Of a stretch of DNA of 17,561 nt, positions 1 through 17,561 are shown piece after piece. Numbering within the stretch: position 1 is the first letter of the stretch; each line of letters begins with the position of its first letter. Below the pieces are notes generated by a model. It saw only the letters and a program-made list of their open reading frames with translations, was not told where the DNA came from and did not search any database. The DNA is from Giardia intestinalis (taxonomy: Eukaryota): the NCBI GenBank assembly GCA_000002435.2, contig AACB03000006.1; one strand, given 5' to 3'. Position numbers and translations under genes: made by a program.

Positions 1-837
1 AGGCCGTGGGGTCCTCGCAGGCCTTTGTGCACTTCACCGGATTGGTTCCCTCCTTGCGATAGTTGGACTTGCAATCGGTGCATGTAGGGGTTAGGCCGCT
101 GTTACATTGGGAGCACCCCTCGATGCCATTGTCGGCTTACTGTCGCAGGCGAAGCACTTACCAGCAGAGCCGGGTTGTTTCATGAAGAATCCAGGCTTGC
201 ATTTAGTGCACTGATCATTGCCAGCAGCAGAGCATGTAGCACAGTTGGCACCGCAAGCTGTGCATGTATCAGAACCAAAGTATCCGTCGAGGCAAGCTGA
301 GCAGGTCGGCTTGGCTCCGTTCTTCTTACACGTTTTACAATTAGCAATCCCCTTGTCGTTTGCTTCTGTTCCTGTTGTTGTATCACTGCATAATATGCAC
401 TTGGTGCTATCATCACTCAGAAAGTGGGATCCGTCGACGTTATCTGTTGCGCACCCAGCATCATCGACGCAAGTGGTTGTCCCATCCAGCTCTGTCTTCA
501 CCTTCTTATTGTTACAGGCGGTGCACTGGGGCTTGCTGACAGTCGTGTTGTACTCACACGCGGTGCAATCTGCTATACCAGACTCCTTGCATGTCATTGT
601 CATAGGGTCAGCATAAGTGTTTCCAGTGCATCCATCACTATTCACGCATGCATTATCCTTCAGGAACGTATTTCCCTTACAAGAGGTACACTGGGTCGCC
701 GATGTCTCACAGGTCAGACAAGTACCATCACATTTGGTACATGCCTGAGAGTCCATGTAGTACCCATCTTGACACTCGGTGCACGTGGCCGCTCCTGTAT
801 TGCCACCAGGTGCCGTGCACTTGAGACAGTTGGCCAC
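1..837 (-). CDS. VSP-type cysteine-rich surface protein cassette, partial (its N-terminal ~279 codons; the C-terminus runs off the window start)
   Basis: The protein [27 protein letters not shown]... is identical to the N-terminal half of the 10506..12098 protein, and this copy sits at the 11260-bp offset. It is CXXC-rich. The first codon is GTG, not ATG. A 1-nt T-run difference at ~137 (tt here versus ttt at 11397) closes the ORF at 91, either a real frameshift or a read error. Confidence 0.7.
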
Positions 838-989
838 TCCCTTGTTCCATTCGCTCCTGTGGCATCATGACAGAGTATGCACTCCCCACCAGGGGTCACC
901 TTGTCTGCCCCATTCTGGAATATGTACTGACTATCTGTATTACAAGCAGTGCATACTCCATTACTGGCCTGTGTGCATATCACACTCCA

Positions 990-1040
990 CTATCATACTA
1001 TCACCCTCTATCACACATTGTACAGCATTCACTACCCAAG
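990..1040 (-). repeat. Inter-cassette junction element (a CTATCAC/GTGATAG short-repeat block plus the polyA signal)
   Basis: + strand: ctatcatactatcaccctctatcacacattgtacagcattcactacccaag. It includes the rc of AGTGAAT at 1027..1033, 7 nt past the stop of 1041..2660. It ends in an in-frame TAG (cta at 990..992) followed by ..TGG AGT GTG ATA TGC, which starts the next cassette. Confidence 0.75.
1027..1033 (-). promoter_or_regulatory. Putative polyadenylation signal AGTGAAT (Giardia AGTRAAY consensus)
   Basis: attcact on the + strand, 7 nt 3' of the TGA of 1041..2660. The same heptamer recurs at a fixed distance after every cassette stop: 2842..2848, 4753..4759, 6679..6685, 8592..8598, 10406..10412, 12287..12293, 14102..14108 and 16013..16019. 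Confidence 0.7.
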
Positions 1041-2660
1041 TCACGCCTTCCCCCTGCACACGAACCACCAGCAGAGGAAGCCCACGAGGCCCCCCACGAC
1101 AGCGACCACAGCGACGGAGATCCCCGCGATGGCCCCCGTGGAGAGCCCGCTCCTGTTGGCGCCAGAGGACACACAGGAGGCCCCACTGCTGTCTAGGCTG
1201 AAGCCACTGTTGCACTCCTCACACACATCATCCACCACACAGCTCTTGCAATCACCCACAGAGCATGTCACACACCCACTGCCGTCCTTGTTGGGCACCT
1301 TACCACTGTCACAGGCAGTACACACAGCGGCAGCCATACCAACTGTTGTTAGAGCTGCTGGGGCTGTACACTGGGAGCAGCCATGTACCCCCACATATGC
1401 CTTAGCGGTACCTTGAGGATCTACTAGTGTGCCTAGGGGGTTACTACATGCCAACACGGACTGCTGAGCATTGGATGCCCCTGGTACCAGGAAGTACTTA
1501 TTATTCTCATTAACAGCGGTACAGACACCGTTGGCTGCTGTCTTGCACATATGTTGTCCAGGTGGACTCTGAGTGCTATAACAACCACCCATATATAAGA
1601 AATATCCTGTAGTACAAGACTCACAGACATGGTTGTTACAAGTATTACTTTGAGCCTCACTAGCACAGAGACCATCTATAGGATACTTACTGCTATCCCC
1701 ACAGTATGAACAGTAGTGCTTTGTGGTGCCCTGATCATCTATTATCATGGCATCACAAGCACCAGAGGTACCCCCACAGGCAGTATCATCTTCACATACC
1801 TTTGTACATGTAACAGGACTGGTACCACTCTGCTTGCGATAGTTCACCTTACAGTCAGTACACTTGAAAGTACTGGCCTCCATTGTGCATTGGGAGCACC
1901 CCTCGATGCCCCCATTGTTTGTGTCATCGCAGGCGAAGCATTCTCCAGGAGTGCTACTGACCTTCAGGAAGAACCCGGTCTTGCAGGTTTGGCATTTGGT
2001 CTTGTCAGCTTTTTCAGAACATGTGGCACAGTTAGCACCACAGGCCTCACACGTGGCGGCAGGGCCATTTCCTTCTTTGATATACCCTTCGAGGCATTCT
2101 ATGCATTCTGGTTTCTGACTTTGCTGCTTAGTACATGTCTTGCAGCCGGCAATGCCTTTGTTCTTTGGTTCTGAATCCGACGCTGCGGGATCACTGCACA
2201 AACGACACACGTTGTCTTCGGTCATAAAGAGACCGTTATCAGCTCCTTGACACCCGGCGTAGTCTTTTGTCACACAGGTCGAGGTCCCATCAAGGGTCGT
2301 CCTGGGGGTCTTATTGGTCCCGCAGTTGGTGCACCTTGGCTTCCCCGTGGCATCATTATATTCACATGCGGTGCACCCAGCTATGTCGGGATCACATGCC
2401 TTGCAGGTCCAGGTCTTCTTGTCTGCGTACTTATCAGCACCACATTCAGTAGCCTCTACACAAGTGTTACCATCCTTCAGGAACTTCCCCTCAACGCAGG
2501 CGGTACACTGAGTCGGAGTATCAGCTGAGCAAGCAGAGCAGCCGTCTCCGCACTTCACACATGCACTGTCCTTCGTAACGAACCCTGCTTGACACTCTGT
2601 ACACGTGGCCGGTCCGCTAGTGCCCGTGTGGGAGCATTCTGAGCATCCAGCGACTCCCAT
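1041..2660 (-). CDS. Variant-specific surface protein (VSP), 539 aa
   Basis: The ORF is full of CXXC motifs and contains the FLYMGGCY (GGCY) motif. Its C-terminal hydrophobic helix is [30 protein letters not shown], followed by TGA. The rc of AGTGAAT lies 7 nt beyond the stop at 1027..1033. The ATG at 2658..2660 is real, but in-frame VSP-like codons ([44 protein letters not shown]) continue 48 codons upstream to a TAG at 2805..2807 with no ATG. No signal peptide is present. Confidence 0.85.
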   Translation of the reverse strand: MGVAGCSECSHTGTSGPATCTECQAGFVTKDSACVKCGDGCSACSADTPTQCTACVEGKFLKDGNTCVEATECGADKYADKKTWTCKACDPDIAGCTACEYNDATGKPRCTNCGTNKTPRTTLDGTSTCVTKDYAGCQGADNGLFMTEDNVCRLCSDPAASDSEPKNKGIAGCKTCTKQQSQKPECIECLEGYIKEGNGPAATCEACGANCATCSEKADKTKCQTCKTGFFLKVSSTPGECFACDDTNNGGIEGCSQCTMEASTFKCTDCKVNYRKQSGTSPVTCTKVCEDDTACGGTSGACDAMIIDDQGTTKHYCSYCGDSSKYPIDGLCASEAQSNTCNNHVCESCTTGYFLYMGGCYSTQSPPGQHMCKTAANGVCTAVNENNKYFLVPGASNAQQSVLACSNPLGTLVDPQGTAKAYVGVHGCSQCTAPAALTTVGMAAAVCTACDSGKVPNKDGSGCVTCSVGDCKSCVVDDVCEECNSGFSLDSSGASCVSSGANRSGLSTGAIAGISVAVVAVVGGLVGFLCWWFVCRGKA

Positions 2661-2804
2661 GACCCCGTTTCTATCTGTCGTATCAGAGCACAGTATGCAC
2701 TCACTACCCTTCTCTGGTGTTGCAGCCGGGTTCTTGAACAGGCCGTTATCTGCCTTACAAGCAGTGCACAGTCCTCCCTCAGCCTTTGTGCATATCTCAC
2801 TCCA

Positions 2805-2855
2805 CTATCATACTATCACCCTCTATCACACATTGTACAGCATTCACTACCCAAG
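2805..2855 (-). repeat. Inter-cassette junction element
   Basis: It is the same conserved ~51-bp element. The polyA signal rc is at 2842..2848, 7 nt past the stop at 2856. The TAG is at 2805..2807. Confidence 0.75.
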
Positions 2856-4697
2856 TCACGCCTTCCCTCTACATATGAACCACCAGCAGAGGAAGCCGAC
2901 GAGGCCCCCCACGACAGCGATGACAGCGACGGAGATCCCTGCTATGGCACCAGTACTGAGGCCGCTCTTGTTGGTGCCAGAGGACGCACAGGAGGTCCCA
3001 CTGCTGTCAGGGCTGTATCCATCGTTGCACACACAGACAGAGTCGGTGTCAGTGGAGTTGCTGGGGCAGCTATCCACGCATGACTTCCTTCCAGGGCTCA
3101 CCTTCTTACCACTACTGCATGCCTCGCACATGTTGTCCATATCACAGTGCGAGCATCCACTAACGGTACATGGGAAGCACCCGCTCCCAGCCAGGTTGGG
3201 CTTGTTGTTGTTGGTACACGCTGTACACACAGCAGCAGTCATACCAGTCTCAGATGGAGCTGTTGGGGCCGTGCATGCTGAGCAGTTGAGTACCCCAACG
3301 TATGCCTTAGAGGTATCACCAGTGCCTACTAGTGTGCCAAGGGAGTTGCTACATGCTAATACAGACTGATTCTGATTGGTTGCCCCAGGGACTACGAAGT
3401 ACCTATTGTTGGCATTAACAGCAGTACAGACACCGTTGGCTGCTGTCTTGCACATATGTTGTCCAGGTACTGTATCAACCTTGTAACAACCTCCCATATA
3501 CAAGAAGTAGTTGTTAGTGCATTGTGTACATACACCTTGATCACATTGATTATTTGCTTTAGCACTATTACACTTCCCATCTATAGGATACGTATTAGCT
3601 TCTCCACAGTATGAGCAATAATGATGCTCTACACCCTTATCATCAATCACTATTGCATCGCAGGCACCAGAAGTTCCTCCACAGGCAGTATCATCTTCAC
3701 AGATCTTGGTGCATGTGACAGAGCCAGTACTGCCCTCCTTGCGATAGTTAGGCTTACAGTCAGTGCACTTGAAAGCACCGTTGTTAGAGCAGACACTGCA
3801 GCCTTCGCGACCCTTATCGTCTACGCTATCGCATGGGACGCACTTCTTCCCCTGTTGATCTGTAGTAGTTACTAAGAAGTATCCAGTCTTGCAGGTTTCA
3901 CACTTATTTGGATCACCAGCAACAGAGCATGTGGCACAGTTATCACCACACTTGTCTGTACATGTACTAGTACCACTATCAAAGAAGTATCCATCGAGAC
4001 AGGCTGAGCAGGTTGGATTGTCACTTCCTGTTTTCGTACATGTCTTGCAGTTGGCCTTTCCTTCGTTACCAAGAGTTGAATCTGTCACATCACTACAAAG
4101 AGCACACGTTTTGTCCTCCTTCATAAATAAGGCCTCGTCAGCGCCCTCGCATCCTTCAAGCGTCTTCGCCACGCAGGTCGATGTCCCGTCGAGGGCCGTC
4201 CTGGGGGTCTTATTGGTCCCGCAGTTAGTGCACTTCGGCTTCCCCGTGGCCTTGTCGAAGGAGCATGCCGTGCACTCTGCGTGTATCGTACTACATGCCT
4301 TGCATGTTCCCGACTCCGGGTCAGCATAAGTGTTTCCATCGCATCCAGTATCTTGTACACATTGATTACTCTTCAGGTACTTCCCCTCTGGGCACGATGT
4401 ACAATGATTCTGACCACTTCCATCGCAGGTCAGACAAGCTTCATTACATTTGACACATGTCTGAGAGTTCTTGTAGTATCCATCTTGGCACTCTGTACAC
4501 GTGGCAGGTCCTGGACTACTGTCTGACTTGGTACACTGTGCGCAGTTAGCCACCCCTGTATATCCATCTGCCCCATTGACATCATGACAGAGGATGCACT
4601 CACTACCAGGCTTCTGAGGTGTAACTGGGTTCTTGAACAGGCCGTTAGCTGTCTTACAAGCAGTGCACACTCCATCACTGGCTGCTGTGCATATCAC
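2856..4697 (-). CDS. Variant-specific surface protein (VSP), 613 codons. The ORF begins at GTG directly after the junction TAG, and the first in-frame ATG is ~190 codons in
   Basis: It has CXXC repeats, the GGCY motif, and the tail [17 protein letters not shown] followed by TGA. The first codon at 4695..4697 is cac on the + strand, which is GTG on the gene strand. The upstream in-frame sequence reads TAG TGG AGT (..*WS). The polyA signal is at 4753..4759 for the upstream neighbour and 2842..2848 for this gene. Confidence 0.8.
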   Translation of the reverse strand: MICTAASDGVCTACKTANGLFKNPVTPQKPGSECILCHDVNGADGYTGVANCAQCTKSDSSPGPATCTECQDGYYKNSQTCVKCNEACLTCDGSGQNHCTSCPEGKYLKSNQCVQDTGCDGNTYADPESGTCKACSTIHAECTACSFDKATGKPKCTNCGTNKTPRTALDGTSTCVAKTLEGCEGADEALFMKEDKTCALCSDVTDSTLGNEGKANCKTCTKTGSDNPTCSACLDGYFFDSGTSTCTDKCGDNCATCSVAGDPNKCETCKTGYFLVTTTDQQGKKCVPCDSVDDKGREGCSVCSNNGAFKCTDCKPNYRKEGSTGSVTCTKICEDDTACGGTSGACDAIVIDDKGVEHHYCSYCGEANTYPIDGKCNSAKANNQCDQGVCTQCTNNYFLYMGGCYKVDTVPGQHMCKTAANGVCTAVNANNRYFVVPGATNQNQSVLACSNSLGTLVGTGDTSKAYVGVLNCSACTAPTAPSETGMTAAVCTACTNNNKPNLAGSGCFPCTVSGCSHCDMDNMCEACSSGKKVSPGRKSCVDSCPSNSTDTDSVCVCNDGYSPDSSGTSCASSGTNKSGLSTGAIAGISVAVIAVVGGLVGFLCWWFICRGKA

Positions 4698-4703
4698 ACT
4701 CCA

Positions 4704-4766
4704 CTATCACACATTATCACCCACTATCACCTTCTATCACCCATTGTACAGCATTCACTACCCAAG
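4704..4766 (-). repeat. Inter-cassette junction element (a longer variant with extra CTATCAC-like units)
   Basis: + strand: ctatcacacattatcacccactatcaccttctatcacccattgtacagcattcactacccaag. The polyA signal rc is at 4753..4759. The TAG is at 4704..4706. Confidence 0.75.
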
Positions 4767-6497
4767 TCACGCCTTCCCCCTGCACACGAACCACCAGCAG
4801 AGGAAGCCCACGAGGCCCCCCACGACAGCGATGACAGCCACGGAGATCCCCGCGACGGCCCCCGTGGAGAGCCCGCTCCTGTTGGTGCCAGAGGACACAC
4901 ACATGCCATCCCTCGGGACATAGCCCTCCTCGCACTCCCCGCAGACGCCCTCTGCGCTGCACCGCATGCACCTCTCTATGTCACAGACAATGCACTGGGT
5001 GCCGTCCAGGCTGGGTCTCTGGTCTTTATTGGTACATGCCTCACACTTGTTGTCTGCGCTGCAGTGAGAGCAGCCCTGGGCCGGACACACATAGCAGGTG
5101 CTTCCAGCCATGTTGGGCTTCTTATTGTCCTCAGCACACACCTCGCACATCCCGTCGATGGCGCAGCTCTTGCACCCGCCGACCGCACACAGGGTGCACC
5201 CGCTGCCATCCTTGTTGGGCTTCTTCGTCTTGTCGCACGCACTACAGACCGCCGCGGCCATCGCATTGGCGGCTGGCGCCTGCGGGGCCGCGCACGCCGT
5301 GCAGTCTAGCACGCCGACGTACGCCTTGTCGCCCGCGGTCGCTCCCACAGGGTTGCCACAGGCAAGCACGGACTGCTGAGCAGCAGAGTCCCCAGGAATC
5401 TTGAAGTAGCGCCCGACCGGTGTGGTGCAGAACCCACTTGGAGCCGCAGAGCACATGAGGTTGCCAGGAGCCTTCGACACATCATAGCAACCACCCATAT
5501 AGAGGAAGTAGTTGTTGGTGCACCGCGTACATACGCCATCGGCGCAGGTATTACCTGCAAGTGCATTGGTGCACTTCCCATTAATAGGGCCATAGCCGGC
5601 GCCAACACACTTTGAACAGTAAGAGAGCATGCTGCCGTCGTTGCCGACCACGATGGCGTCGCAGGCCCCTGCTGTCCCTCCACATGCAGTCTCATCTTCA
5701 CAGGTCTTTGTACATGTGAGGTCGCTAGGTTCTCCGCTGGGTCTGTAGTTGGGCTTACATTCAGTGCATTTGAGGGACCCCACGCCGCCTGTGCACTCGG
5801 CACAGCCTGGAATCCCACTTGTCTCGTCATCACAGAGAACGCATGTCTTAGGCGGGCCATCCTTAAGGAAGTACCCCGGCATGCATCTTGTACATGTGTT
5901 GATTTGACCCGCTGTTCCGCACTCTGCGCAGTTTCCTGTGCAGGCCTCGCAGGCGTTTCCGTTGACTTTATACCCGTCGACACAAGCCTCGCAGGTGCCT
6001 TTTGCGGTGCACAGCTTGCAGTTCTGGACTCCGCCCTTACCATTGTCGCCGCACTGCACGCACTTCGAGGCGTCGTAGAAGTGCGTCTTGCCCACTTTGC
6101 ACTCGGCCTCATCAACACAGGTCGTTGTCCCATCCAGCTCGTCTCTGACCGTCTTACTACCGCAGTCGGTGCACTTCGGCTTTCCCGTGGCGTCGTCGTA
6201 TGCACACGCGGTGCATCCTTGTATCTCACTGCAGGCCTTACAGGTCCAGGTCTTCTTGTCCGCATAGTTACCATTGTCACATCCACCAGCATCTACACAA
6301 GTGTTACCATCCTTCAGGTACTTCCCCTCAACGCAGGCGGTACACTGAGTCGGAGTATCAGCTGAGCAAGCAGAGCAGCCGTCTCCGCACTTCACACATG
6401 CACTGTCCTTCGTAACGAACCCTGCTTGACACTCTGTACACGTGGCCGGTCCGCTAGTGCCCGTGTGGGAGCATTCTGAGCATCCAGCGACTCCCAT
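4767..6497 (-). CDS. Variant-specific surface protein (VSP), 576 aa
   Basis: Its N-terminal 58 aa are identical to those of the 1041..2660 protein and the middle is divergent. It carries the CRGKA tail. The same 48-codon ATG-less in-frame extension continues upstream to 6642..6644. The polyA signal is at 4753..4759. Confidence 0.85.
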   Translation of the reverse strand: MGVAGCSECSHTGTSGPATCTECQAGFVTKDSACVKCGDGCSACSADTPTQCTACVEGKYLKDGNTCVDAGGCDNGNYADKKTWTCKACSEIQGCTACAYDDATGKPKCTDCGSKTVRDELDGTTTCVDEAECKVGKTHFYDASKCVQCGDNGKGGVQNCKLCTAKGTCEACVDGYKVNGNACEACTGNCAECGTAGQINTCTRCMPGYFLKDGPPKTCVLCDDETSGIPGCAECTGGVGSLKCTECKPNYRPSGEPSDLTCTKTCEDETACGGTAGACDAIVVGNDGSMLSYCSKCVGAGYGPINGKCTNALAGNTCADGVCTRCTNNYFLYMGGCYDVSKAPGNLMCSAAPSGFCTTPVGRYFKIPGDSAAQQSVLACGNPVGATAGDKAYVGVLDCTACAAPQAPAANAMAAAVCSACDKTKKPNKDGSGCTLCAVGGCKSCAIDGMCEVCAEDNKKPNMAGSTCYVCPAQGCSHCSADNKCEACTNKDQRPSLDGTQCIVCDIERCMRCSAEGVCGECEEGYVPRDGMCVSSGTNRSGLSTGAVAGISVAVIAVVGGLVGFLCWWFVCRGKA

Positions 6498-6641
6498 GAC
6501 CCCGTTTCTATCTGTCGTATCAGAGCACAGTATGCACTCACTACCCTTCTCTGGTGTTGCATCAGGGTTCTTGAACAGGCCGTTAGCTGTCTTACAAGCA
6601 GTGCACAGTCCTCCCTCAGCCTTTGTGCATATCTCACTCCA

Positions 6642-6692
6642 CTATCATACTATCACACACTATCACCCATTGTATAGCATTCACTACCCAAG
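6642..6692 (-). repeat. Inter-cassette junction element
   Basis: + strand: ctatcatactatcacacactatcacccattgtatagcattcactacccaag. The polyA signal rc is at 6679..6685. Confidence 0.75.
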
Positions 6693-8540
6693 TCACGCCT
6701 TCCCCCTGCACACGAACCACCAGCAGAGGAAGCCCACGAGGCCCCCCACGACAGCGATGACAGCCACGGAGATCCCTGCTATGGCACCAGTACTGAGGCC
6801 GCTTCTGTTGCCCCCGCTGGGCTTGGTGGACACGCACGCCTCACCCTCCAGCCTGTAGTCGTCCCCACACTGGCCGCACTTGTTCTCCTCGCTGCACCTG
6901 ACGCACCCGTCGATATTGCAGGCGATGCACTTCGTTCCGTCTGTGTTCGGCCTCTGGTCTTTACTGGTACAGGCCTCGCACTTACCGCCTGCTCCACAGT
7001 GCGAGCATCCGTCAACGGTACATGCGAAGCACCCGCTCCCAGCCAGGTTGGGCTTGTTGTTGTTGGTACACGCTGTACACACAGCAGCAGTCATACCAGT
7101 CTCAGACAGAGCTGTTGGGGCCGTGCATGCCGAACAGCCATCTACCCCCACATATGCCTTAGAGGTATCACCAGTGCCTACTAGTGTGCCAAGGGAGTTG
7201 CTACATGCCAATACAGACTGATTCTGATTGGTTGCCCCAGGGACTATGAAGTACCTATTGTTGGCATTAACAGCGGTACAGACACCGTTGGCTGCTGTCT
7301 TGCACATATGTTGTCCAGGTACTGTATCAACCTTGTAACAACCTCCCATATACAAGAAGTAGTTGTTAGTGCATTGTGTACATACACCTTGATCACATTG
7401 ATTATTTGCTTTAGCACTATTACACTTCCCATCTATAGGATACGTATTAGCTTCTCCACAGTATGAGCAATAATGATGCTCTACACCCTTATCATCAATC
7501 ACTATTGCATCGCAGGCACCAGAAGTTCCTCCACAGGCAGTATCATCTTCACAGATCTTGGTGCATGTGACAGAGCCAGTACTGCCCTCCTTGCGATAGT
7601 TAGGCTTACAGTCAGTGCACTTGAAAGCACCGTTGTTAGAGCAGACACTGCAGCCTTCGCGACCCTTATCGTCTACGCTATCGCATGGGACGCACTTCTT
7701 CCCCTGTTGATCTGTAGTAGTTACTAAGAAGTATCCAGTCTTGCAGGTTTCACACTTATTTGGATCACCAGCAACAGAGCATGTGGCACAGTTATCACCA
7801 CACTTGTCTGTACATGTACTAGTACCACTATCAAAGAAGTATCCATCGAGACAGGCTGAGCAGGTTGGATTGTCACTTCCTGTTTTCGTACATGTCTTGC
7901 AGTTGGCCTTTCCTTCGTTACCAAGAGTTGAATCTGTCACATCACTACAAAGAGCACACGTTTTGTCCTCCTTCATAAATAAGGCCTCGTCAGCGCCCTC
8001 GCATCCTTCAAGCGTCTTCGCCACGCAGGTCGATGTCCCGTCGAGGGCCGTCCTGGGGGTCTTATTGGTCCCGCAGTTAGTGCACTTCGGCTTCCCCGTG
8101 GCCTTGTCGAAGGAGCATGCCGTGCACTCTGCGTGTATCGTACTACATGCCTTGCATGTTCCCGACTCCGGGTCAGCATACTTATCATTACCACAGCTAT
8201 CAGTACATTGATTCCCATTGAGGTACTTCCCCTCTGGACACGATGTGCACTGGGTCGCCGATGTCTCACAGGTGGCACAGTTCCCCTCGCATGGCTTACA
8301 AAGCTTGTTGTTTAGGAAGTACCCCTCTTGACAGGTATTACACGTGGCAGGTCCTGCATTCCCTGGTGCCGTACACTTGAGACAGTTGGCCACTCCCGTA
8401 TATCCATTCGCTCCCTTGATATCAGAGCACAAGATGCACTCCCCACCAGGAGTCACCTTGTCTGCCCTGTTCTGGAATATGTACTTGTTATCTGTCTTAC
8501 AAGCAGTGCACAGTCCATTACTGGCCTTTGTACATATCAC
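6693..8540 (-). CDS. Variant-specific surface protein (VSP), 615 codons, a mosaic paralogue
   Basis: The central ~350 aa (…CKACSTIHAECTACSFDKATGKPKCTNCGTNKTPRTALDGTSTCVAK… through …AYVGV) are essentially identical to 2856..4697. The C-terminal ~100 aa match the C-terminus of 10506..12098. The N-terminus is unique. It carries the CRGKA tail. The first codon is GTG, preceded by an in-frame TAG at 8547..8549. Confidence 0.8.
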   Translation of the reverse strand: MICTKASNGLCTACKTDNKYIFQNRADKVTPGGECILCSDIKGANGYTGVANCLKCTAPGNAGPATCNTCQEGYFLNNKLCKPCEGNCATCETSATQCTSCPEGKYLNGNQCTDSCGNDKYADPESGTCKACSTIHAECTACSFDKATGKPKCTNCGTNKTPRTALDGTSTCVAKTLEGCEGADEALFMKEDKTCALCSDVTDSTLGNEGKANCKTCTKTGSDNPTCSACLDGYFFDSGTSTCTDKCGDNCATCSVAGDPNKCETCKTGYFLVTTTDQQGKKCVPCDSVDDKGREGCSVCSNNGAFKCTDCKPNYRKEGSTGSVTCTKICEDDTACGGTSGACDAIVIDDKGVEHHYCSYCGEANTYPIDGKCNSAKANNQCDQGVCTQCTNNYFLYMGGCYKVDTVPGQHMCKTAANGVCTAVNANNRYFIVPGATNQNQSVLACSNSLGTLVGTGDTSKAYVGVDGCSACTAPTALSETGMTAAVCTACTNNNKPNLAGSGCFACTVDGCSHCGAGGKCEACTSKDQRPNTDGTKCIACNIDGCVRCSEENKCGQCGDDYRLEGEACVSTKPSGGNRSGLSTGAIAGISVAVIAVVGGLVGFLCWWFVCRGKA

Positions 8541-10224
8541 ACTCCACTATCACACTATCACCCTCTATACCATTATCACACATTGTATAGCATTCACTAC
8601 CTGAGTCATGCCTTCCCTCTACATATGAACCACCAGCAGAGGAAGCCCACGAGGCCCCCACGACGACGACCACAGCGACGGAGATCCCCGCGATGGCCCC
8701 CGTGGAGAGCCCGCTCCTGTTGGTACTCATAGACACACAGGAGGCCCCACTGCTGTCTATGCTGAAACCACTGTTGCACTCTTCACATATATTATCCATC
8801 ACACAGCTCTTACAATCACCCACAGAGCATGTCACACACCCACTGCCGTCCTTGTTGGGCACCTTACCACTGTCACAGGAGGTACACACAGCGGCAGTCA
8901 TACCACCATCAGACAGAGCTGCTGGGGCCGTACATGCCGAACAGCCATCTACCCCCACATATGCCTTAGCGGTACCTTGAGGATCTACTAGTGTGCCTAG
9001 GGGGTTACTACATGCCAACACGGACTGCTGAGCATTGGATGCCCCTGGTACCAGGAAGTACTTATTATTCTCATTAACAGCGGTACAGACACCGTTGGCT
9101 GCTGTCTTGCACATATGTTGTCCAGGTGGACTCTGAGTGCTATAACAACCACCCATATATAAGAAATATCCTGTAGTACAAGACTCACAGACATGGTTGT
9201 TACAAGTATTACTTTGAGCCTCACTAGCACAGAGACCATCTATAGGATACTTACTGCTATCCCCACAGTATGAACAGTAGTGCTTTGTGGTGCCCTGATC
9301 ATCTATTATCATGGCATCACAAGCACCAGAGGTACCCCCACAGGCAGTATCATCTTCACATACCTTTGTACATGTAACAGGACTGGTACCACTCTGCTTG
9401 CGATAGTTCACCTTACAGTCAGTACACTTGAAAGTACTGGCCTCCATTGTGCATTGGGAGCACCCCTCGATGCCCCCATTGTTTGTGTCATCGCAGGCGA
9501 AGCATTCTCCAGGAGTGCTACTGACCTTCAGGAAGAACCCGGTCTTGCAGGTTTGGCATTTGGTCTTGTCAGCTTTTTCAGAACATGTGGCACAGTTAGC
9601 ACCACAGGCCTCACACGTGGCGGCAGGGCCATTTCCTTCTTTGATATACCCTTCGAGGCATTCTATGCATTCTGGTTTCTGACTTTGCTGCTTAGTACAT
9701 GTCTTGCAGCCGGCAATGCCTTTGTTCTTTGGTTCTGAATCCGACGCTGCGGGATCACTGCACAAACGACACACGTTGTCTTCGGTCATAAAGAGACCGT
9801 TATCAGCTCCTTGACACCCGGCGTAGTCTTTTGTCACACAGGTCGAGGTCCCATCAAGGGTCGTCCTGGGGGTCTTATTGGTCCCGCAGTTAGTGCACCT
9901 TGGCTTCCCCGTGGCATCATTATATTCACATGCGGTGCACCCAGCTATGTCGGGATCACATGCCTTGCAGGTCCAGGTCTTCTTGTCTGCGTACTTATCA
10001 GCACCACATTCAGTAGCCTCTACACAAGTGTTACCATCCTTCAGGAACTTCCCCTCAACGCAGGCGGTACACTGAGTCGGAGTATCAGCTGAGCAAGCAG
10101 AGCAGCCGTCTCCGCACTTCACACATGCACTGTCCTTCGTAACGAACCCTGCTTGACACTCTGTACACGTGGCCGGTCCGCTAGTGCCCGTGTGGGAGCA
10201 TTCTGAGCATCCAGCGACTCCCAT
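8518..10224 (-). CDS. VSP paralogue of 1041..2660 with an apparent frameshift in the transmembrane/tail coding region. The expected CRGKA stop is at 8606..8608
   Basis: The protein is identical to the 539-aa VSP up to ...AKAYVGV and then divergent. On the + strand at ~8656..8662 a run of 5 C replaces the 6 C seen in every other copy, a G6 run in the codons VGGLVG. The ORF therefore reads through the FLCWWFICRGKA frame and ends at 8518. Restoring 1 nt would give ...FLCWWFICRGKA with TGA at 8606. Confidence 0.7.
   Translation of the reverse strand: MGVAGCSECSHTGTSGPATCTECQAGFVTKDSACVKCGDGCSACSADTPTQCTACVEGKFLKDGNTCVEATECGADKYADKKTWTCKACDPDIAGCTACEYNDATGKPRCTNCGTNKTPRTTLDGTSTCVTKDYAGCQGADNGLFMTEDNVCRLCSDPAASDSEPKNKGIAGCKTCTKQQSQKPECIECLEGYIKEGNGPAATCEACGANCATCSEKADKTKCQTCKTGFFLKVSSTPGECFACDDTNNGGIEGCSQCTMEASTFKCTDCKVNYRKQSGTSPVTCTKVCEDDTACGGTSGACDAMIIDDQGTTKHYCSYCGDSSKYPIDGLCASEAQSNTCNNHVCESCTTGYFLYMGGCYSTQSPPGQHMCKTAANGVCTAVNENNKYFLVPGASNAQQSVLACSNPLGTLVDPQGTAKAYVGVDGCSACTAPAALSDGGMTAAVCTSCDSGKVPNKDGSGCVTCSVGDCKSCVMDNICEECNSGFSIDSSGASCVSMSTNRSGLSTGAIAGISVAVVVVVGASWASSAGGSYVEGRHDSGSECYTMCDNGIEGDSVIVECDMYKGQ
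8547..8605 (-). repeat. Inter-cassette junction element (a variant)
   Basis: + strand: ctatcacactatcaccctctataccattatcacacattgtatagcattcactacctgag. The polyA signal rc is at 8592..8598. The stop of the upstream cassette would be 8606..8608. Confidence 0.7.
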
Positions 10225-10368
10225 GACCCCGTTTCTATCTGTCGTATCAGAGCACAGTATGCACTCACTACCCTTCTCTGGTGTTGCAGCCGGGTTCTTG
10301 AACAGGCCGTTATCTGCCTTACAAGCAGTGCACAGTCCTCCCTCAGCCTTTGTGCATATCTCACTCCA

Positions 10369-10419
10369 CTATCATACTATCACCCTCTATCACACATTGT
10401 ACAGCATTCACTACCCAAG
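10369..10419 (-). repeat. Inter-cassette junction element
   Basis: Same as 2805..2855. The polyA signal rc is at 10406..10412. The expected stop of the 10506..12098 cassette is 10420..10422. Confidence 0.75.
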
Positions 10420-10505
10420 TCACGCCTTCCCCCTGCACACGAACCACCAGCAGAGGAAGCCCACGAGGCCCCCCACGACAGCGATGACAGCCACGGAGAT
10501 CCCTG

Positions 10506-12098
10506 CTATGGCACCAGTACTGAGGCCGCTTCTGTTGCCCCGCTGGGCTTGGTGGACACGCACGCCTCACCCTCCAGCCTGTAGTCGTCCCCACACTGGC
10601 CGCACTTGTTCTCCTCGCTGCACCTGACGCACCCGTCGATATTGCAGGCGATGCACTTCGTTCCGTCTGTGTTCGGCCTCTGGTCTTTACTGGTACAGGC
10701 CTCGCACTTATCGCCTGCTCCACAGTGCGAGCATCCGTCAACGGTACATGCGAAGCACCCGCTCCCAGCCAGGTTGGGCTTGTTGTTGTTGGTACACGCT
10801 GTGCACGTGGCGGCAGTCATGCCACCATCAGATGGAGCTGCTGGGGCTGTACACTGTGAACAGTTGAGTACCCCCACGTATGCCTTAGCAGTATCACCAG
10901 TGCCTACTAGTGTGCCTAGGGGGTTCTCGCAGGCCAGGACAGACTGATCAGTATTGGATGCCCCCGGGACCAGGAAGTACCGGCCGTTCTCGCTGGGGGC
11001 GGTGCACCTCCCTCCCTCGGCAGTCTTGCACATGTGGCTGCCAGGAGCCTTCGACACATCATAGCAGCCGCCCATGTACAGGAAGAACCCGGCAGCACAC
11101 CGGGTGCAGACGCCATTGGCACAGGTGTTGTCACCCTTAGTTCCTGTGCAGATCCCATCGATGGGGAACGTGGCGGGGTCTCCGCACAGCGAGCAGTACT
11201 GGGAGAACGCCCCGGCGCTGTCAACGACGACCGCCCCGCAGGCCCCAGACGTCCCCCCGCAGGCCGTGGGGTCCTCGCAGGCCTTTGTGCACTTCACCGG
11301 ATTGGTTCCCTCCTTGCGATAGTTGGACTTGCAATCGGTGCATGTAGGGGTTAGGCCGCTGTTACATTGGGAGCACCCCTCGATGCCATTGTCGGCTTTA
11401 CTGTCGCAGGCGAAGCACTTACCAGCAGAGCCGGGTTGTTTCATGAAGAATCCAGGCTTGCATTTAGTGCACTGATCATTGCCAGCAGCAGAGCATGTAG
11501 CACAGTTGGCACCGCAAGCTGTGCATGTATCAGAACCAAAGTATCCGTCGAGGCAAGCTGAGCAGGTCGGCTTGGCTCCGTTCTTCTTACACGTTTTACA
11601 ATTAGCAATCCCCTTGTCGTTTGCTTCTGTTCCTGTTGTTGTATCACTGCATAATATGCACTTGGTGCTATCATCACTCAGAAAGTGGGATCCGTCGACG
11701 TTATCTGTTGCGCACCCAGCATCATCGACGCAAGTGGTTGTCCCATCCAGCTCTGTCTTCACCTTCTTATTGTTACAGGCGGTGCACTGGGGCTTGCTGA
11801 CAGTCGTGTTGTACTCACACGCGGTGCAATCTGCTATACCAGACTCCTTGCATGTCATTGTCATAGGGTCAGCATAAGTGTTTCCAGTGCATCCATCACT
11901 ATTCACGCATGCATTATCCTTCAGGAACGTATTTCCCTTACAAGAGGTACACTGGGTCGCCGATGTCTCACAGGTCAGACAAGTACCATCACATTTGGTA
12001 CATGCCTGAGAGTCCATGTAGTACCCATCTTGACACTCGGTGCACGTGGCCGCTCCTGTATTGCCACCAGGTGCCGTGCACTTGAGACAGTTGGCCAC
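10506..12098 (-). CDS. VSP paralogue ([12 protein letters not shown]...) with a frameshift just before the transmembrane domain. The expected end is at 10420
   Basis: It has CXXC repeats, the GGCY motif, and C-terminal modules shared with 6693..8540. At 10538..10541 there are 4 C where 5 C stand at the homologous 6811..6815. The shift gives ...[14 protein letters not shown] instead of [17 protein letters not shown]...CRGKA. The first codon at 12096..12098 is GTG. An additional N-terminal frameshift is present in the upstream piece 12099..12243. Confidence 0.7.
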
Positions 12099-12249
12099 TC
12101 CCTTGTTCCATTCGCTCCTGTGGCATCATGACAGAGATGCACTCCCCACCAGGGGTCACCTTGTCTGCCCCATTCTGGAATATGTACTGACTATCTGTAT
12201 TACAAGCAGTGCATACTCCATTACTGGCCTGTGTGCATATCACACTCCA

Positions 12250-12300
12250 CTATCATACTATCACCCTCTATCACACATTGTACAGCATTCACTACCCAAG
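12250..12300 (-). repeat. Inter-cassette junction element
   Basis: A copy of 990..1040 at the +11260 offset. The polyA signal rc is at 12287..12293. Confidence 0.75.
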
Positions 12301-13920
12301 TCACGCCTTCCCCCTGCACACGAACCACCAGCAGAGGAAGCCCACGAGGCCCCCCACGACAGCGACCACAGCGACGGAGATCCCCGCGATGGCCCCCGTG
12401 GAGAGCCCGCTCCTGTTGGCGCCAGAGGACACACAGGAGGCCCCACTGCTGTCTAGGCTGAAGCCACTGTTGCACTCCTCACACACATCATCCACCACAC
12501 AGCTCTTGCAATCACCCACAGAGCATGTCACACACCCACTGCCGTCCTTGTTGGGCACCTTACCACTGTCACAGGCAGTACACACAGCGGCAGCCATACC
12601 AACTGTTGTTAGAGCTGCTGGGGCTGTACACTGGGAGCAGCCATGTACCCCCACATATGCCTTAGCGGTACCTTGAGGATCTACTAGTGTGCCTAGGGGG
12701 TTACTACATGCCAACACGGACTGCTGAGCATTGGATGCCCCTGGTACCAGGAAGTACTTATTATTCTCATTAACAGCGGTACAGACACCGTTGGCTGCTG
12801 TCTTGCACATATGTTGTCCAGGTGGACTCTGAGTGCTATAACAACCACCCATATATAAGAAATATCCTGTAGTACAAGACTCACAGACATGGTTGTTACA
12901 AGTATTACTTTGAGCCTCACTAGCACAGAGACCATCTATAGGATACTTACTGCTATCCCCACAGTATGAACAGTAGTGCTTTGTGGTGCCCTGATCATCT
13001 ATTATCATGGCATCACAAGCACCAGAGGTACCCCCACAGGCAGTATCATCTTCACATACCTTTGTACATGTAACAGGACTGGTACCACTCTGCTTGCGAT
13101 AGTTCACCTTACAGTCAGTACACTTGAAAGTACTGGCCTCCATTGTGCATTGGGAGCACCCCTCGATGCCCCCATTGTTTGTGTCATCGCAGGCGAAGCA
13201 TTCTCCAGGAGTGCTACTGACCTTCAGGAAGAACCCGGTCTTGCAGGTTTGGCATTTGGTCTTGTCAGCTTTTTCAGAACATGTGGCACAGTTAGCACCA
13301 CAGGCCTCACACGTGGCGGCAGGGCCATTTCCTTCTTTGATATACCCTTCGAGGCATTCTATGCATTCTGGTTTCTGACTTTGCTGCTTAGTACATGTCT
13401 TGCAGCCGGCAATGCCTTTGTTCTTTGGTTCTGAATCCGACGCTGCGGGATCACTGCACAAACGACACACGTTGTCTTCGGTCATAAAGAGACCGTTATC
13501 AGCTCCTTGACACCCGGCGTAGTCTTTTGTCACACAGGTCGAGGTCCCATCAAGGGTCGTCCTGGGGGTCTTATTGGTCCCGCAGTTGGTGCACCTTGGC
13601 TTCCCCGTGGCATCATTATATTCACATGCGGTGCACCCAGCTATGTCGGGATCACATGCCTTGCAGGTCCAGGTCTTCTTGTCTGCGTACTTATCAGCAC
13701 CACATTCAGTAGCCTCTACACAAGTGTTACCATCCTTCAGGAACTTCCCCTCAACGCAGGCGGTACACTGAGTCGGAGTATCAGCTGAGCAAGCAGAGCA
13801 GCCGTCTCCGCACTTCACACATGCACTGTCCTTCGTAACGAACCCTGCTTGACACTCTGTACACGTGGCCGGTCCGCTAGTGCCCGTGTGGGAGCATTCT
13901 GAGCATCCAGCGACTCCCAT
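12301..13920 (-). CDS. Variant-specific surface protein (VSP), 539 aa, a second copy of 1041..2660
   Basis: The protein is identical to the 1041..2660 product and lies at the +11260 offset. It has the CRGKA tail. The polyA signal is at 12287..12293. Confidence 0.85.
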   Translation of the reverse strand: MGVAGCSECSHTGTSGPATCTECQAGFVTKDSACVKCGDGCSACSADTPTQCTACVEGKFLKDGNTCVEATECGADKYADKKTWTCKACDPDIAGCTACEYNDATGKPRCTNCGTNKTPRTTLDGTSTCVTKDYAGCQGADNGLFMTEDNVCRLCSDPAASDSEPKNKGIAGCKTCTKQQSQKPECIECLEGYIKEGNGPAATCEACGANCATCSEKADKTKCQTCKTGFFLKVSSTPGECFACDDTNNGGIEGCSQCTMEASTFKCTDCKVNYRKQSGTSPVTCTKVCEDDTACGGTSGACDAMIIDDQGTTKHYCSYCGDSSKYPIDGLCASEAQSNTCNNHVCESCTTGYFLYMGGCYSTQSPPGQHMCKTAANGVCTAVNENNKYFLVPGASNAQQSVLACSNPLGTLVDPQGTAKAYVGVHGCSQCTAPAALTTVGMAAAVCTACDSGKVPNKDGSGCVTCSVGDCKSCVVDDVCEECNSGFSLDSSGASCVSSGANRSGLSTGAIAGISVAVVAVVGGLVGFLCWWFVCRGKA

Positions 13921-14064
13921 GACCCCGTTTCTATCTGTCGTATCAGAGCACAGTATGCACTCACTACCCTTCTCTGGTGTTGCAGCCGGGTTCTTGAACA
14001 GGCCGTTATCTGCCTTACAAGCAGTGCACAGTCCTCCCTCAGCCTTTGTGCATATCTCACTCCA

Positions 14065-14115
14065 CTATCATACTATCACCCTCTATCACACATTGTACAG
14101 CATTCACTACCCAAG
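14065..14115 (-). repeat. Inter-cassette junction element
   Basis: A copy of 2805..2855. The polyA signal rc is at 14102..14108. Confidence 0.75.
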
Positions 14116-15957
14116 TCACGCCTTCCCTCTACATATGAACCACCAGCAGAGGAAGCCGACGAGGCCCCCCACGACAGCGATGACAGCGACGGAGATCCCT
14201 GCTATGGCACCAGTACTGAGGCCGCTCTTGTTGGTGCCAGAGGACGCACAGGAGGTCCCACTGCTGTCAGGGCTGTATCCATCGTTGCACACACAGACAG
14301 AGTCGGTGTCAGTGGAGTTGCTGGGGCAGCTATCCACGCATGACTTCCTTCCAGGGCTCACCTTCTTACCACTACTGCATGCCTCGCACATGTTGTCCAT
14401 ATCACAGTGCGAGCATCCACTAACGGTACATGGGAAGCACCCGCTCCCAGCCAGGTTGGGCTTGTTGTTGTTGGTACACGCTGTACACACAGCAGCAGTC
14501 ATACCAGTCTCAGATGGAGCTGTTGGGGCCGTGCATGCTGAGCAGTTGAGTACCCCAACGTATGCCTTAGAGGTATCACCAGTGCCTACTAGTGTGCCAA
14601 GGGAGTTGCTACATGCTAATACAGACTGATTCTGATTGGTTGCCCCAGGGACTACGAAGTACCTATTGTTGGCATTAACAGCAGTACAGACACCGTTGGC
14701 TGCTGTCTTGCACATATGTTGTCCAGGTACTGTATCAACCTTGTAACAACCTCCCATATACAAGAAGTAGTTGTTAGTGCATTGTGTACATACACCTTGA
14801 TCACATTGATTATTTGCTTTAGCACTATTACACTTCCCATCTATAGGATACGTATTAGCTTCTCCACAGTATGAGCAATAATGATGCTCTACACCCTTAT
14901 CATCAATCACTATTGCATCGCAGGCACCAGAAGTTCCTCCACAGGCAGTATCATCTTCACAGATCTTGGTGCATGTGACAGAGCCAGTACTGCCCTCCTT
15001 GCGATAGTTAGGCTTACAGTCAGTGCACTTGAAAGCACCGTTGTTAGAGCAGACACTGCAGCCTTCGCGACCCTTATCGTCTACGCTATCGCATGGGACG
15101 CACTTCTTCCCCTGTTGATCTGTAGTAGTTACTAAGAAGTATCCAGTCTTGCAGGTTTCACACTTATTTGGATCACCAGCAACAGAGCATGTGGCACAGT
15201 TATCACCACACTTGTCTGTACATGTACTAGTACCACTATCAAAGAAGTATCCATCGAGACAGGCTGAGCAGGTTGGATTGTCACTTCCTGTTTTCGTACA
15301 TGTCTTGCAGTTGGCCTTTCCTTCGTTACCAAGAGTTGAATCTGTCACATCACTACAAAGAGCACACGTTTTGTCCTCCTTCATAAATAAGGCCTCGTCA
15401 GCGCCCTCGCATCCTTCAAGCGTCTTCGCCACGCAGGTCGATGTCCCGTCGAGGGCCGTCCTGGGGGTCTTATTGGTCCCGCAGTTAGTGCACTTCGGCT
15501 TCCCCGTGGCCTTGTCGAAGGAGCATGCCGTGCACTCTGCGTGTATCGTACTACATGCCTTGCATGTTCCCGACTCCGGGTCAGCATAAGTGTTTCCATC
15601 GCATCCAGTATCTTGTACACATTGATTACTCTTCAGGTACTTCCCCTCTGGGCACGATGTACAATGATTCTGACCACTTCCATCGCAGGTCAGACAAGCT
15701 TCATTACATTTGACACATGTCTGAGAGTTCTTGTAGTATCCATCTTGGCACTCTGTACACGTGGCAGGTCCTGGACTACTGTCTGACTTGGTACACTGTG
15801 CGCAGTTAGCCACCCCTGTATATCCATCTGCCCCATTGACATCATGACAGAGGATGCACTCACTACCAGGCTTCTGAGGTGTAACTGGGTTCTTGAACAG
15901 GCCGTTAGCTGTCTTACAAGCAGTGCACACTCCATCACTGGCTGCTGTGCATATCAC
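14116..15957 (-). CDS. Variant-specific surface protein (VSP), 613 codons, a second copy of 2856..4697
   Basis: The protein is identical to the 2856..4697 product and lies at the +11260 offset. It has a GTG first codon and the CRGKA tail. The polyA signal is at 14102..14108. Confidence 0.8.
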   Translation of the reverse strand: MICTAASDGVCTACKTANGLFKNPVTPQKPGSECILCHDVNGADGYTGVANCAQCTKSDSSPGPATCTECQDGYYKNSQTCVKCNEACLTCDGSGQNHCTSCPEGKYLKSNQCVQDTGCDGNTYADPESGTCKACSTIHAECTACSFDKATGKPKCTNCGTNKTPRTALDGTSTCVAKTLEGCEGADEALFMKEDKTCALCSDVTDSTLGNEGKANCKTCTKTGSDNPTCSACLDGYFFDSGTSTCTDKCGDNCATCSVAGDPNKCETCKTGYFLVTTTDQQGKKCVPCDSVDDKGREGCSVCSNNGAFKCTDCKPNYRKEGSTGSVTCTKICEDDTACGGTSGACDAIVIDDKGVEHHYCSYCGEANTYPIDGKCNSAKANNQCDQGVCTQCTNNYFLYMGGCYKVDTVPGQHMCKTAANGVCTAVNANNRYFVVPGATNQNQSVLACSNSLGTLVGTGDTSKAYVGVLNCSACTAPTAPSETGMTAAVCTACTNNNKPNLAGSGCFPCTVSGCSHCDMDNMCEACSSGKKVSPGRKSCVDSCPSNSTDTDSVCVCNDGYSPDSSGTSCASSGTNKSGLSTGAIAGISVAVIAVVGGLVGFLCWWFICRGKA

Positions 15958-15963
15958 ACTCCA

Positions 15964-16026
15964 CTATCACACATTATCACCCACTATCACCTTCTATCAC
16001 CCATTGTACAGCATTCACTACCCAAG
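15964..16026 (-). repeat. Inter-cassette junction element (long variant)
   Basis: A copy of 4704..4766. The polyA signal rc is at 16013..16019. Confidence 0.75.
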
Positions 16027-17561
16027 TCACGCCTTCCCCCTGCACACGAACCACCAGCAGAGGAAGCCCACGAGGCCCCCCACGACAGCGATGACAGCCA
16101 CGGAGATCCCCGCGACGGCCCCGTGGAGAGCCCGCTCCTGTTGGTGCCAGAGGACACACACATGCCATCCCTCGGGACATAGCCCTCCTCGCACTCCCCG
16201 CAGACGCCCTCTGCGCTGCACCGCATGCACCTCTCTATGTCACAGACAATGCACTGGGTGCCGTCCAGGCTGGGTCTCTGGTCTTTATTGGTACATGCCT
16301 CACACTTGTTGTCTGCGCTGCAGTGAGAGCAGCCCTGGGCCGGACACACATAGCAGGTGCTTCCAGCCATGTTGGGCTTCTTATTGTCCTCAGCACACAC
16401 CTCGCACATCCCGTCGATGGCGCAGCTCTTGCACCCGCGACCGCACACAGGTGCACCCGCTGCCATCCTGTGGGCTTCTTCGTCTTGTCGCACGCACTAC
16501 AGACCGCCGCGGCCATCGCATTGGCGGGCTGGCGCCTGCGGGCCGCGCACGCCCGTGCATCTAGCACGCCGACGTACGCCTTGTCGCCCGCGGTCGCTCC
16601 CACAGGGTTGCCACAGGCAGCACGGACTGCTGAGCAGCAAGTCCCCAGAATCTGAAGTACGCCCGACGGTGTGGTGCAGAACCCACTGGAGCCGCAGAGC
16701 ACATGAGGTTGCCAGAGCCTTCGACACATCATAGCAACCACCCATATAGAGGAAGTAGTTGTTGGTGCACCGCGTACATACGCCATCGGCGCAGGTATTA
16801 CCTGCAAGTGCATTGTGCACTTTCCCATTAATAGGCCCATAGCCGGCGCCAACACACTTTGAACAGTAAGAGAGCATGCTGCCGTCGTGCCGACCACGAT
16901 GGCGTCGCAGGCCCCTGCTGTCCCCACATGCAGTCTCATCTTCACAGGTCTTTGTACATGTGAGGTCGCTAGGTTCTCCGCTGGTCTGTAGTTGGGCTTA
17001 CATTCAGTGCATTTGAGGGACCCCACGCCGCCTGTGCACTCGGCACAGCCTGGAATCCCACTTGTCTCGTCATCACAGAGAAACGCATGTCTTAGGCGGG
17101 CCATCCTTAAGGAAGTACCCGGCATGCATCTTGTACATGTGTTGATTTGACCCGCTGTTCCGCACTCTGCGCAGTTTCCTGTGCAGGCCTCGCAGGCGTT
17201 TCCGTTGACTTTATTACCCGTCGACACAAGCCTCGCAGGTGCCTTTTGCGGTGCACAGCTTGCAGTTCTGGACTCCGCCCTTACCATTGTCGCCGCACTG
17301 CACGCACTTGAGGCGTCGTAGAAGTGCGTCTTGCCCACTTTGCACTCGGCCTCATCAACACAGGTCGTTGTCCCATCCAGCTCGTCTCTGACCGTTTACT
17401 ACCGCAGTCGGTGCACTTCGGCTTTCCCGTGGCGTCGTCGTATGCACACGCCGGTGCATCCTTGTATCTCACTGCAGGCCTTACAGGTCCAGGTCTTCTT
17501 GTCCGCATAGTTACCTTGTCACATCCACCAGCATCTACACAAGTGTTACCATCCTTCAGGT
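16027..17561 (-). pseudogene. Degraded or low-quality second copy of the 4767..6497 VSP, partial at the window end
   Basis: 16027..16230 encodes an intact ...[24 protein letters not shown] tail. Upstream of that, the copy differs from 4975..6301 almost only by many 1-3 nt deletions, with no obvious substitutions. For example, 16441..16500 versus 5181..5244 lacks c, g and tgt. The reading frame hops between three frames in ORFs 16235..17338, 16497..16877 and 17281..17508. Confidence 0.6.

Follow-up and report, generated by a model that had tools for sequence, protein, structure and literature searches.

A six-cassette, 11.26-kb repeat unit in a probable linear array of Giardia duodenalis pseudo-VSP genes

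The 17,561-nt stretch of DNA analysed here, hereafter the window, consists of nine variant-specific surface protein (VSP) cassettes, arranged head-to-tail on one strand (minus), and repeats itself with a period of approximately 11,260 nt. We consider it reasonably probable that the window represents part of a VSP linear array of Giardia duodenalis, built of promoterless, 5'-truncated pseudo-VSP cassettes, a judgement which applies to this explanation as a whole. With similar confidence, we regard the array as a real tandem array of an 11.26-kb unit of six cassettes, present in at least two copies and represented by the assembler as a contig of 1.56 units. The object belongs to a known class in the same organism, for which the array type, the missing start signals, the mosaicism and the resistance to assembly have all been published. 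In Giardia genome assemblies, it is chiefly the VSP arrays that are still unresolved, and the six-cassette unit provides a concrete target for measuring copy number, and for asking whether expressed VSPs receive sequence from silent cassettes.

The 11.26-kb unit and its copies

The earlier note on this DNA had held that 1..6301 and 11261..17561 match base for base, and global alignment of these two segments bears this out for the first 4,858 aligned bases, which contain no substitutions and two 1-nt indels. A T after position 136 is absent in copy 1 and present at 11397 in copy 2, and a T at 876 in copy 1 is absent at 12136 in copy 2; these are evidently the isolated indels previously placed at ~137 and ~876/12137. 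The copies differ at 33 places in total, leaving aside the 18 nt by which copy 2 overhangs at its end. From 4859/16118 onward, the last 1.44 kb of copy 2 show a difference of about 2.1%, made up of 24 single-base deletions, 6 insertions and 1 substitution, with the indels falling mostly within homopolymer runs of 2-5 bases, such that the earlier description of a deletion-ridden tail was apt. The final 18 nt of the window correspond to 6302-6319; given this net base loss in copy 2, the true repeated segment is 1-6319, equivalent to 11261-17561. The proteins of two cassette pairs are 100% identical, as had been claimed, namely those of 1041-2660 and 12301-13920 (539 aa), and those of 2856-4697 and 14116-15957 (613 aa). 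An identity of 6.3 kb cannot have arisen by chance.

Several measures converge on the same period. The stop codons of cassettes B and B2, at 1041 and 12301, lie 11,260 nt apart, and the lengths of the six distinct cassettes (A to F; Table 1) also total 11,260 nt. A repeat search returned 300-nt seeds recurring every 11,259-11,261 nt, and, at a finer scale, families of nine to twelve copies at a spacing of about 1.8-1.9 kb. Between these two scales lies a third, as two cassette types alternate along the unit: type 1 (B, D, and F), whose members have a common 5' end including MGVAGCSECSHTG, and type 2 (C, E, and A), which together form three pairs spaced at about 3.7-3.85 kb. The periodicity crosses the window without any internal boundary, and the repeat of 1-6319 as 11261-17561 touches both window ends, leaving no unique flank within the window. 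The contig spans 1.56 units, and both of its ends lie inside the array.

Cassette bounds in Table 1 run from each stop codon up to, but not including, the next stop upstream. The open reading frame (ORF) coordinates quoted previously follow bacterial start-codon rules, and their GTG and TTG 'starts' are an artefact of the bacterial genetic code; the homologous VSP frame of each cassette in fact reaches upstream nearly to the previous stop codon.

Table 1. Coordinates of cassettes, repeat copies, shared tracts and an example spacer in the window
Feature	Position	Strand	Remarks
Cassette A, copy 1	1..1040	-	3' part cut by window start; 1-nt deletion after 136 that is not in copy 2
Cassette B	1041..2855	-	Type-1 pseudo-VSP; 1,815 nt; 586 in-frame codons; CRGKA end; first-ATG ORF 539 aa
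Cassette C	2856..4766	-	Type-2 pseudo-VSP; 1,911 nt; 615 in-frame codons; first ATG at codon 194
Cassette D	4767..6692	-	Type-1 pseudo-VSP; 1,926 nt; 623 in-frame codons; first-ATG ORF 576 aa
Cassette E	6693..8605	-	Type-2 pseudo-VSP; 1,913 nt; 617 in-frame codons
Cassette F	8606..10419	-	Type-1 pseudo-VSP; 1,814 nt; 97.7% identical to B; frameshifted in C5 run
Cassette A, complete copy	10420..12300	-	Type-2 pseudo-VSP; 1,881 nt; frameshifted in C4 run
Cassette B2	12301..14115	-	Identical to B
Cassette C2	14116..16026	-	Identical to C
Cassette D2, partial	16027..17561	-	5' part cut by window end; indel-rich
Repeat copy 1	1..6319		Partial A, B, C and most of D; aligns to 11261-17561
Repeat copy 2	11261..17561		Period ~11,260 nt
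Low-quality contig tail	16118..17561		24 deletions, 6 insertions, 1 substitution vs copy 1
Tract of B shared with F	1386..2855	-	8950-10419 in F; 942+527 nt exact, one mismatch
Tract of C shared with E	3424..4328	-	905 nt, exact in E (7276-8180)
B/F block in P0003 (complete 720-aa VSP)	2250-2675 (=9814-10239, 13510-13935)		aa 148-289 of P0003
D block in P0008 (748-aa VSP)	4857-5717		aa 433-719 of P0008
A block in P0012	166-594 (=11427-11855)		aa 168-310 of P0012
B/F block in P0121	1569-2441		aa 155-446 of P0121
Example inter-cassette spacer	4698..4769	-	TGA stop, CTTGGGTAGTGAATGCT, then degenerate GTGATAG(TGG) repeats; stops in all frames

VSP cassettes without 5' ends

The cassettes belong to the VSP family. 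The long ORFs all lie on the minus strand and end in (V/I)CRGKA, and all six distinct cassettes match the Pfam family PF03302 (Giardia variant-specific surface protein), with E-values of 1e-13 to 1e-42 and scores of 48.6-146.8 bits against a cut-off of 31.4. Each comprises 11.9-13.2% Cys, with 25-32 CXXC motifs and one GGCY, and the transmembrane segment and CRGKA follow in frame in B, C, D, and E, and after a 1-nt homopolymer frameshift in F and A. Database searches with the cassettes returned Giardia duodenalis VSPs exclusively; a bacterial or phage origin was considered and is ruled out by the Pfam and homology results together. Read from its first ATG, cassette B encodes 539 aa that are 100% identical to VSP S7 (GenBank AAN52102), and the neighbouring entry, S6 (AY142127), is vsp138, a linear-array member (Adam et al., 2010, PMC2996952). 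Over 375 aa, cassette D matches at 100% identity KAE8304682, from chromosome 5 (4.02 Mb) of the WB PacBio assembly, and the C-terminal half of D has an identical 287-aa block in common with the 748-aa VSP of the adjacent accession, KAE8304683. For cassette E, identity to XP_001705784 of WB is 98.8% across 427 aa. From this protein identity, we infer that the sequence comes from isolate WB, or from a near-identical assemblage AI isolate.

What the cassettes lack is equally consistent. A stop-rich spacer of about 65-90 nt lies between each stop codon and the next VSP frame, which then opens at 'WS(E/V)ICT(K/A)A...', a motif that aligns to residue 106 of a complete 720-aa WB VSP (P0003), downstream of both the signal peptide and the first GGCY region. 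The first in-frame ATG occurs at codon 28-194, depending on the cassette. Judged from frames that open at the equivalent of residue 106, no cassette in the window has a start codon with an N-terminal signal peptide, and given these late ATGs the cassettes are pseudo-VSPs rather than complete VSP genes. The VSP initiator (Inr), PyAATGTT or YAATGTT, has no match on either strand of the window, against 2.8 expected by chance; in its place, the spacers carry only CAATGTG or CAATGGG. The member expected to head such an array, with an upstream non-coding region, Inr and signal peptide, was not found in the window, which ends inside the array on both sides; such a head, if it exists, must lie beyond the window.

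The 3' ends, by comparison, are retained. The minus-strand sequence TGA-CTTGGGTAGTGAATGCT is present nine times (once as a CTCAGG variant), against 0 expected by chance, and just after the stop codon, within CTTGGGTAGTGAATGCT, lies AGTGAAT, which we take to be the Giardia poly(A) consensus. In addition to the spacer in Table 1, equivalent stop-plus-motif sites occur at 1024-1043, 2839-2858, 6676-6695, 8589-8608, 10403-10422, 12284-12303, 14099-14118, and 16010-16029.

The spacers have further features of their own. Degenerate 7-10-nt GTGATAG(TGG) repeats (minus strand) are found in every spacer, at 4701-4743, 15961-16003, 1044-1110, 2859-2925, 6696-6760, 8609-8680, and 10423-10490; TRF (Tandem Repeats Finder) reported only a 10-nt spacer repeat, and an Rfam scan of the window returned no RNA families. 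Just before the spacer repeats stands CAATGTGTGATAG (or CAATGGGTGATAG), one mismatch from the VSP initiator and start, 'CAATGTT...'. Either form may be a decayed relic of the Inr, the ATG and the start of the signal peptide. In other WB arrays (P0121 and P0130), the same spacer is read through as 'MLYSDSDS...'.

This architecture is that of the 'linear arrays' of isolate WB, which hold over half of its vsp genes, separated by spacers that average 60 bp (Adam et al., 2010, BMC Genomics 11:424, PMC2996952). No downstream member in those arrays has an Inr, and most of the arrays were located on very short contigs whose ends fall within the array, leading to the conclusion that 'much longer arrays may exist' (Adam et al., 2010, PMC2996952). 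The window resembles them in its head-to-tail VSPs with short spacers, in downstream members without an Inr or proper start, and in its long tracts of 100% identity, the published arrays being mostly of Clade I and on contigs that end mid-array. The supplementary table of the same study lists ORFs of 688, 455, 539, 427, 576, and 392 aa for the chromosome 4 array vsp80-85, and sets of 538/448/576/426 and 568/427/425 aa on small contigs (Adam et al., 2010, PMC2996952); the sizes 539, 427, and 576 aa (vsp82-84) equal those of the first-ATG ORFs of F/B, E, and D, and the order agrees. The difference is one of organization: related pairs were noted in that study, whereas a repeated multi-cassette unit was not described, and the window contains a six-cassette (3 x 2) unit repeated without substitutions outside the contig-end tail.

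Later work on the WB PacBio assembly points the same way. Pseudo-VSPs (pVSPs) have been located in 'unassembled scaffolds ... or in arrays of multiple pVSPs', and a complete VSP was present on 0 of 30 unplaced WB scaffolds (Rodriguez-Walker et al., 2022, preprint). These pseudo-VSPs resemble the cassettes of the window in having no signal peptide or start codon and in being arrayed, and many of them lie on unplaced scaffolds (Xu et al., 2020, Sci Data 7:38, PMC7000408; Rodriguez-Walker et al., 2022); a copy number or unit structure for the 11.26-kb block was not found in those two papers.

The frames themselves retain a coding imprint. No in-frame stop interrupts the 570-623 codons of the cassettes, and dN/dS between cassettes is 0.2-0.54, values that are rough given that dS is near saturation for many pairs. 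Together these findings indicate that the divergence among cassettes was gained under coding constraint, or imported from functional genes, rather than through neutral decay. The C-terminal frameshift in F lies at 8655-8659, a C5 run that is C6 in B and E, and the one in A lies at 10538-10541, a C4 run that is C5 in E. Downstream of both, conservation is perfect in the transmembrane segment, CRGKA, the stop codon and the poly(A) signal. The two frameshifts are probably uncorrected long-read errors, with real mutations as the alternative; a homopolymer frameshift problem has been reported for the WB PacBio assembly (Xu et al., 2020, PMC7000408). The complete copy of A also carries a 1-nt deletion at ~12107, common to copy 1 at ~846, and a copy-specific deletion at ~12136. 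The shared deletion, which lies in the 5' part of A and outside any homopolymer, may be real.

Long antisense or out-of-frame ORFs of 241-328 aa also occur, at 2605-3369, 4584-5309, and 13865-14629 on the plus strand, and at 5306-6292 on the minus strand. The plus-strand ORFs (100-254 aa) lie opposite VSP frames for which Pfam support is strong, and, together with minus 5306-6292, were judged to be by-products of a stop-poor alternate frame in coding sequence rich in Cys, Gly and Thr.

Mosaic tracts and the possible role of the array

Pairwise identity among the cassettes of one unit ranges from 55 to 98% and is patchy, with exact tracts of 173-942 nt connecting different cassettes. In the pair B/F, two exact tracts are separated by a single mismatch and divergence is confined to ~350 nt at the 3' end; C matches E at 85%, with an exact tract of 905 nt between flanks that are 57-81% identical; A and E are 98-100% identical across their last ~450 columns; and B, D, and F have 242 nt at the 5' end that are exactly the same. 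The unit is thus a patchwork of conversion-like tracts. The earlier view that the paralogues inside one unit have 'clearly diverged' does not hold for pairs at 97.7% (B/F), or at 85% with such an exact tract (C/E). Because exact, conversion-like tracts link different cassettes within the unit, homogenisation must operate in the array. This much stands of the choice put forward previously, between a recent duplication or homogenisation, over-extension by the assembler, and a collapsed repeat; the choice among those options does not follow from it.

The two copies of the unit are closer to each other (0 substitutions outside the contig-end tail) than are any two cassettes within the unit, which makes the arrangement a higher-order repeat by definition. 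Alpha-satellite higher-order repeats and ribosomal DNA (rDNA) show nested periodicities in which units are more alike than their monomers, a classical outcome of unequal crossing-over and homogenisation, and the window has in common with them both the nested periods and the greater likeness of units than of monomers within a unit. It differs from alpha-satellite in that the monomers are 1.9-kb coding cassettes bearing an imprint of purifying selection, rather than non-coding satellite.

These features would fit the following course of events. The array may have started by tandem duplication with breakpoints in the 3' UTR (untranslated region) and near codon 105 of a complete gene. The cassettes as they stand retain the full cysteine-rich ectodomain frame, transmembrane segment, CRGKA, stop and poly(A) signal; they have neither promoter or initiator nor start codon or signal peptide, and about 105 codons are missing from the start, but they are otherwise translatable. 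Rounds of unequal crossing-over, with the register shifted by two and then by six cassettes, could have produced the hierarchy of 1.9, 3.75, and 11.26 kb, while segmental gene conversion would patch the cassettes and keep the array both patchy and homogeneous.

Tract sharing appears to extend beyond the array. Identical blocks of 142-292 aa are common to the cassettes and to otherwise divergent WB VSPs, some of which are annotated as complete (P0003, P0008, P0012, and P0121; Table 1), which suggests recent exchange of tracts between array cassettes and complete genes. Expression of the cassettes as surface proteins is most unlikely, and they probably constitute a silent reservoir that swaps tracts with complete VSP genes; alternatively, they might be templates from which sense or antisense RNA involved in VSP silencing is made. 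The idea of a reservoir is not new: downstream array members were proposed to be silent recombination cassettes in WB (Adam et al., 2010, PMC2996952), and a similar hypothesis exists for Giardia muris (Xu et al., 2020, Microb Genom). The latter account describes long subtelomeric arrays of pseudo-VSPs, which likewise have no signal peptide and are proposed as a gene-conversion reservoir; those arrays belong to another species, are telomeric and encode a CRGK tail, whereas the window contains no telomeric or rDNA sequence.

A more distant parallel exists in Trypanosoma brucei, in which silent arrays of VSG genes and pseudogenes contribute to the formation of mosaic VSGs. In both systems, arrays of partial surface-antigen genes that are not expressed have tracts in common with expressed ones, consistent with segmental gene conversion. 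We know of no expression-site transposition in Giardia. Unlike in T. brucei, VSP switching in Giardia is epigenetic, and the chromosomal location of the gene does not change (Adam et al., 2010, PMC2996952). In a stronger and rather unlikely version of the reservoir idea, the 11.26-kb block would be a multi-copy, actively homogenised repeat that is collapsed in current Giardia assemblies, which would conceal a reservoir of considerable size, and its ORF-intact cassettes would be kept translatable as donors of 0.4-0.9-kb tracts to expressed VSPs. If true, such donation would constitute a DNA-level route to new surface antigens in an organism in which antigenic variation is regarded as wholly epigenetic or post-transcriptional.

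Tandem array or assembly product

The case for a real tandem array begins with the nature of the differences between the copies. These appear technical, consisting of 1-nt indels and a deletion-heavy, 1.44-kb tail at the contig end, such that the two units are indistinguishable; the tail presumably represents a contig end carried by one or few corrected long reads. That identity runs to both ends of the window without unique flank would be expected of an array that exceeds the contig in length or has been collapsed. Exact tracts between different cassettes are at most 1.5 kb and their neighbours differ, and reads of several kb should therefore be placeable within a unit, but not between identical units. 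Failure of the assembler to resolve identical units is thus a likely explanation for both contig ends lying inside the array, and consensus polishing may have inflated the perfect identity of the copies.

Several considerations weigh against this interpretation. The repetition of the whole unit in tandem is documented by one contig, in which the second copy ends in a 1.44-kb tail clearly backed by very few reads, and polishing with multi-mapping reads makes copies identical whatever the state of the genome. Isolate WB also has several slightly different versions of these cassettes, for example vsp82-84, 221-223, and 245-248 (Adam et al., 2010, PMC2996952), and the contig could therefore be a chimera of paralogous arrays. 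As for function, the proposed donor-reservoir role derives from mosaic identity, and the window contains no evidence on the direction, timing or rate of exchange.

A recent segmental duplication with fixed bounds, comprising exactly 1.56 or two units inside a longer heterogeneous array, is a possibility that we hold in some doubt. Precedents exist, in that multi-gene duplications of up to 20 kb occur in WB (Xu et al., 2020, PMC7000408), and the closest-relative pairs vsp60/65 and vsp61/64 lie inside one 10-gene array (Adam et al., 2010, PMC2996952). However, identity that extends to both window ends without unique flank fits poorly with a bounded two-copy duplication, no end of a duplicated segment being visible, and a uniquely flanked block of two units would usually be bridged and placed on a chromosome, rather than ending mid-cassette twice.

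We think it improbable that the repeat is an assembly artefact, in which a single genomic six-cassette block, or cassettes in some other order, were falsely joined via near-identical cassettes belonging to paralogous arrays or to alleles, and the copies then homogenised by polishing. Exact tracts of 905-1,470 nt between cassettes, the several near-identical paralogous cassettes in WB, the low-coverage quality of the copy 2 tail, and the resistance of such arrays to assembly reported in the literature would all be compatible with a false join. The tracts of up to 1.5 kb are, however, shorter than typical long reads, and the flanking cassettes (C vs A, A vs E, and D) are distinct enough to anchor reads. 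Further, a false join normally leaves a breakpoint where similarity stops, whereas the periodicity here is seamless from end to end. Allelic heterozygosity in WB is also very low, at 0.01-0.03%, which makes tandem misplacement of haplotypes unlikely. Least credible is a single 11.26-kb unit that left the array as an extrachromosomal circle, around which the assembler then ran past its starting point, for although the first 6.3 kb equal the last 6.3 kb without any flank, which is the usual signature of a circular contig, a collapsed tandem array yields the same signature, no report of such an episome was found in the Giardia literature examined, and the window holds VSP cassettes only, with no function resembling replication or maintenance.

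The tandem array that we favour would also be difficult to see in the published optical map. The MluI site (ACGCGT) does not occur in the 17.5-kb window, against about 2.4 expected, and the WB MluI map therefore cannot show a unit pattern, as the array would appear as one large fragment; this may be a reason why such arrays are hard to place. Exact-sequence look-ups with ORFs B and D, and with the WB proteins P0003, P0008, and P0123, returned no contigs, and a metagenome scan with the cassette B protein pattern gave no matches. Five metagenome loci (L002-L006) were picked up with a 21-nt pattern from the invariant transmembrane region; these have no BLAST similarity to the window and were dismissed as chance matches. 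The look-up with another WB protein, P0007, led to a locus in another Giardia assembly (L001), where a solitary 713-aa VSP lies between housekeeping genes, its DNA being ~69-75% identical.

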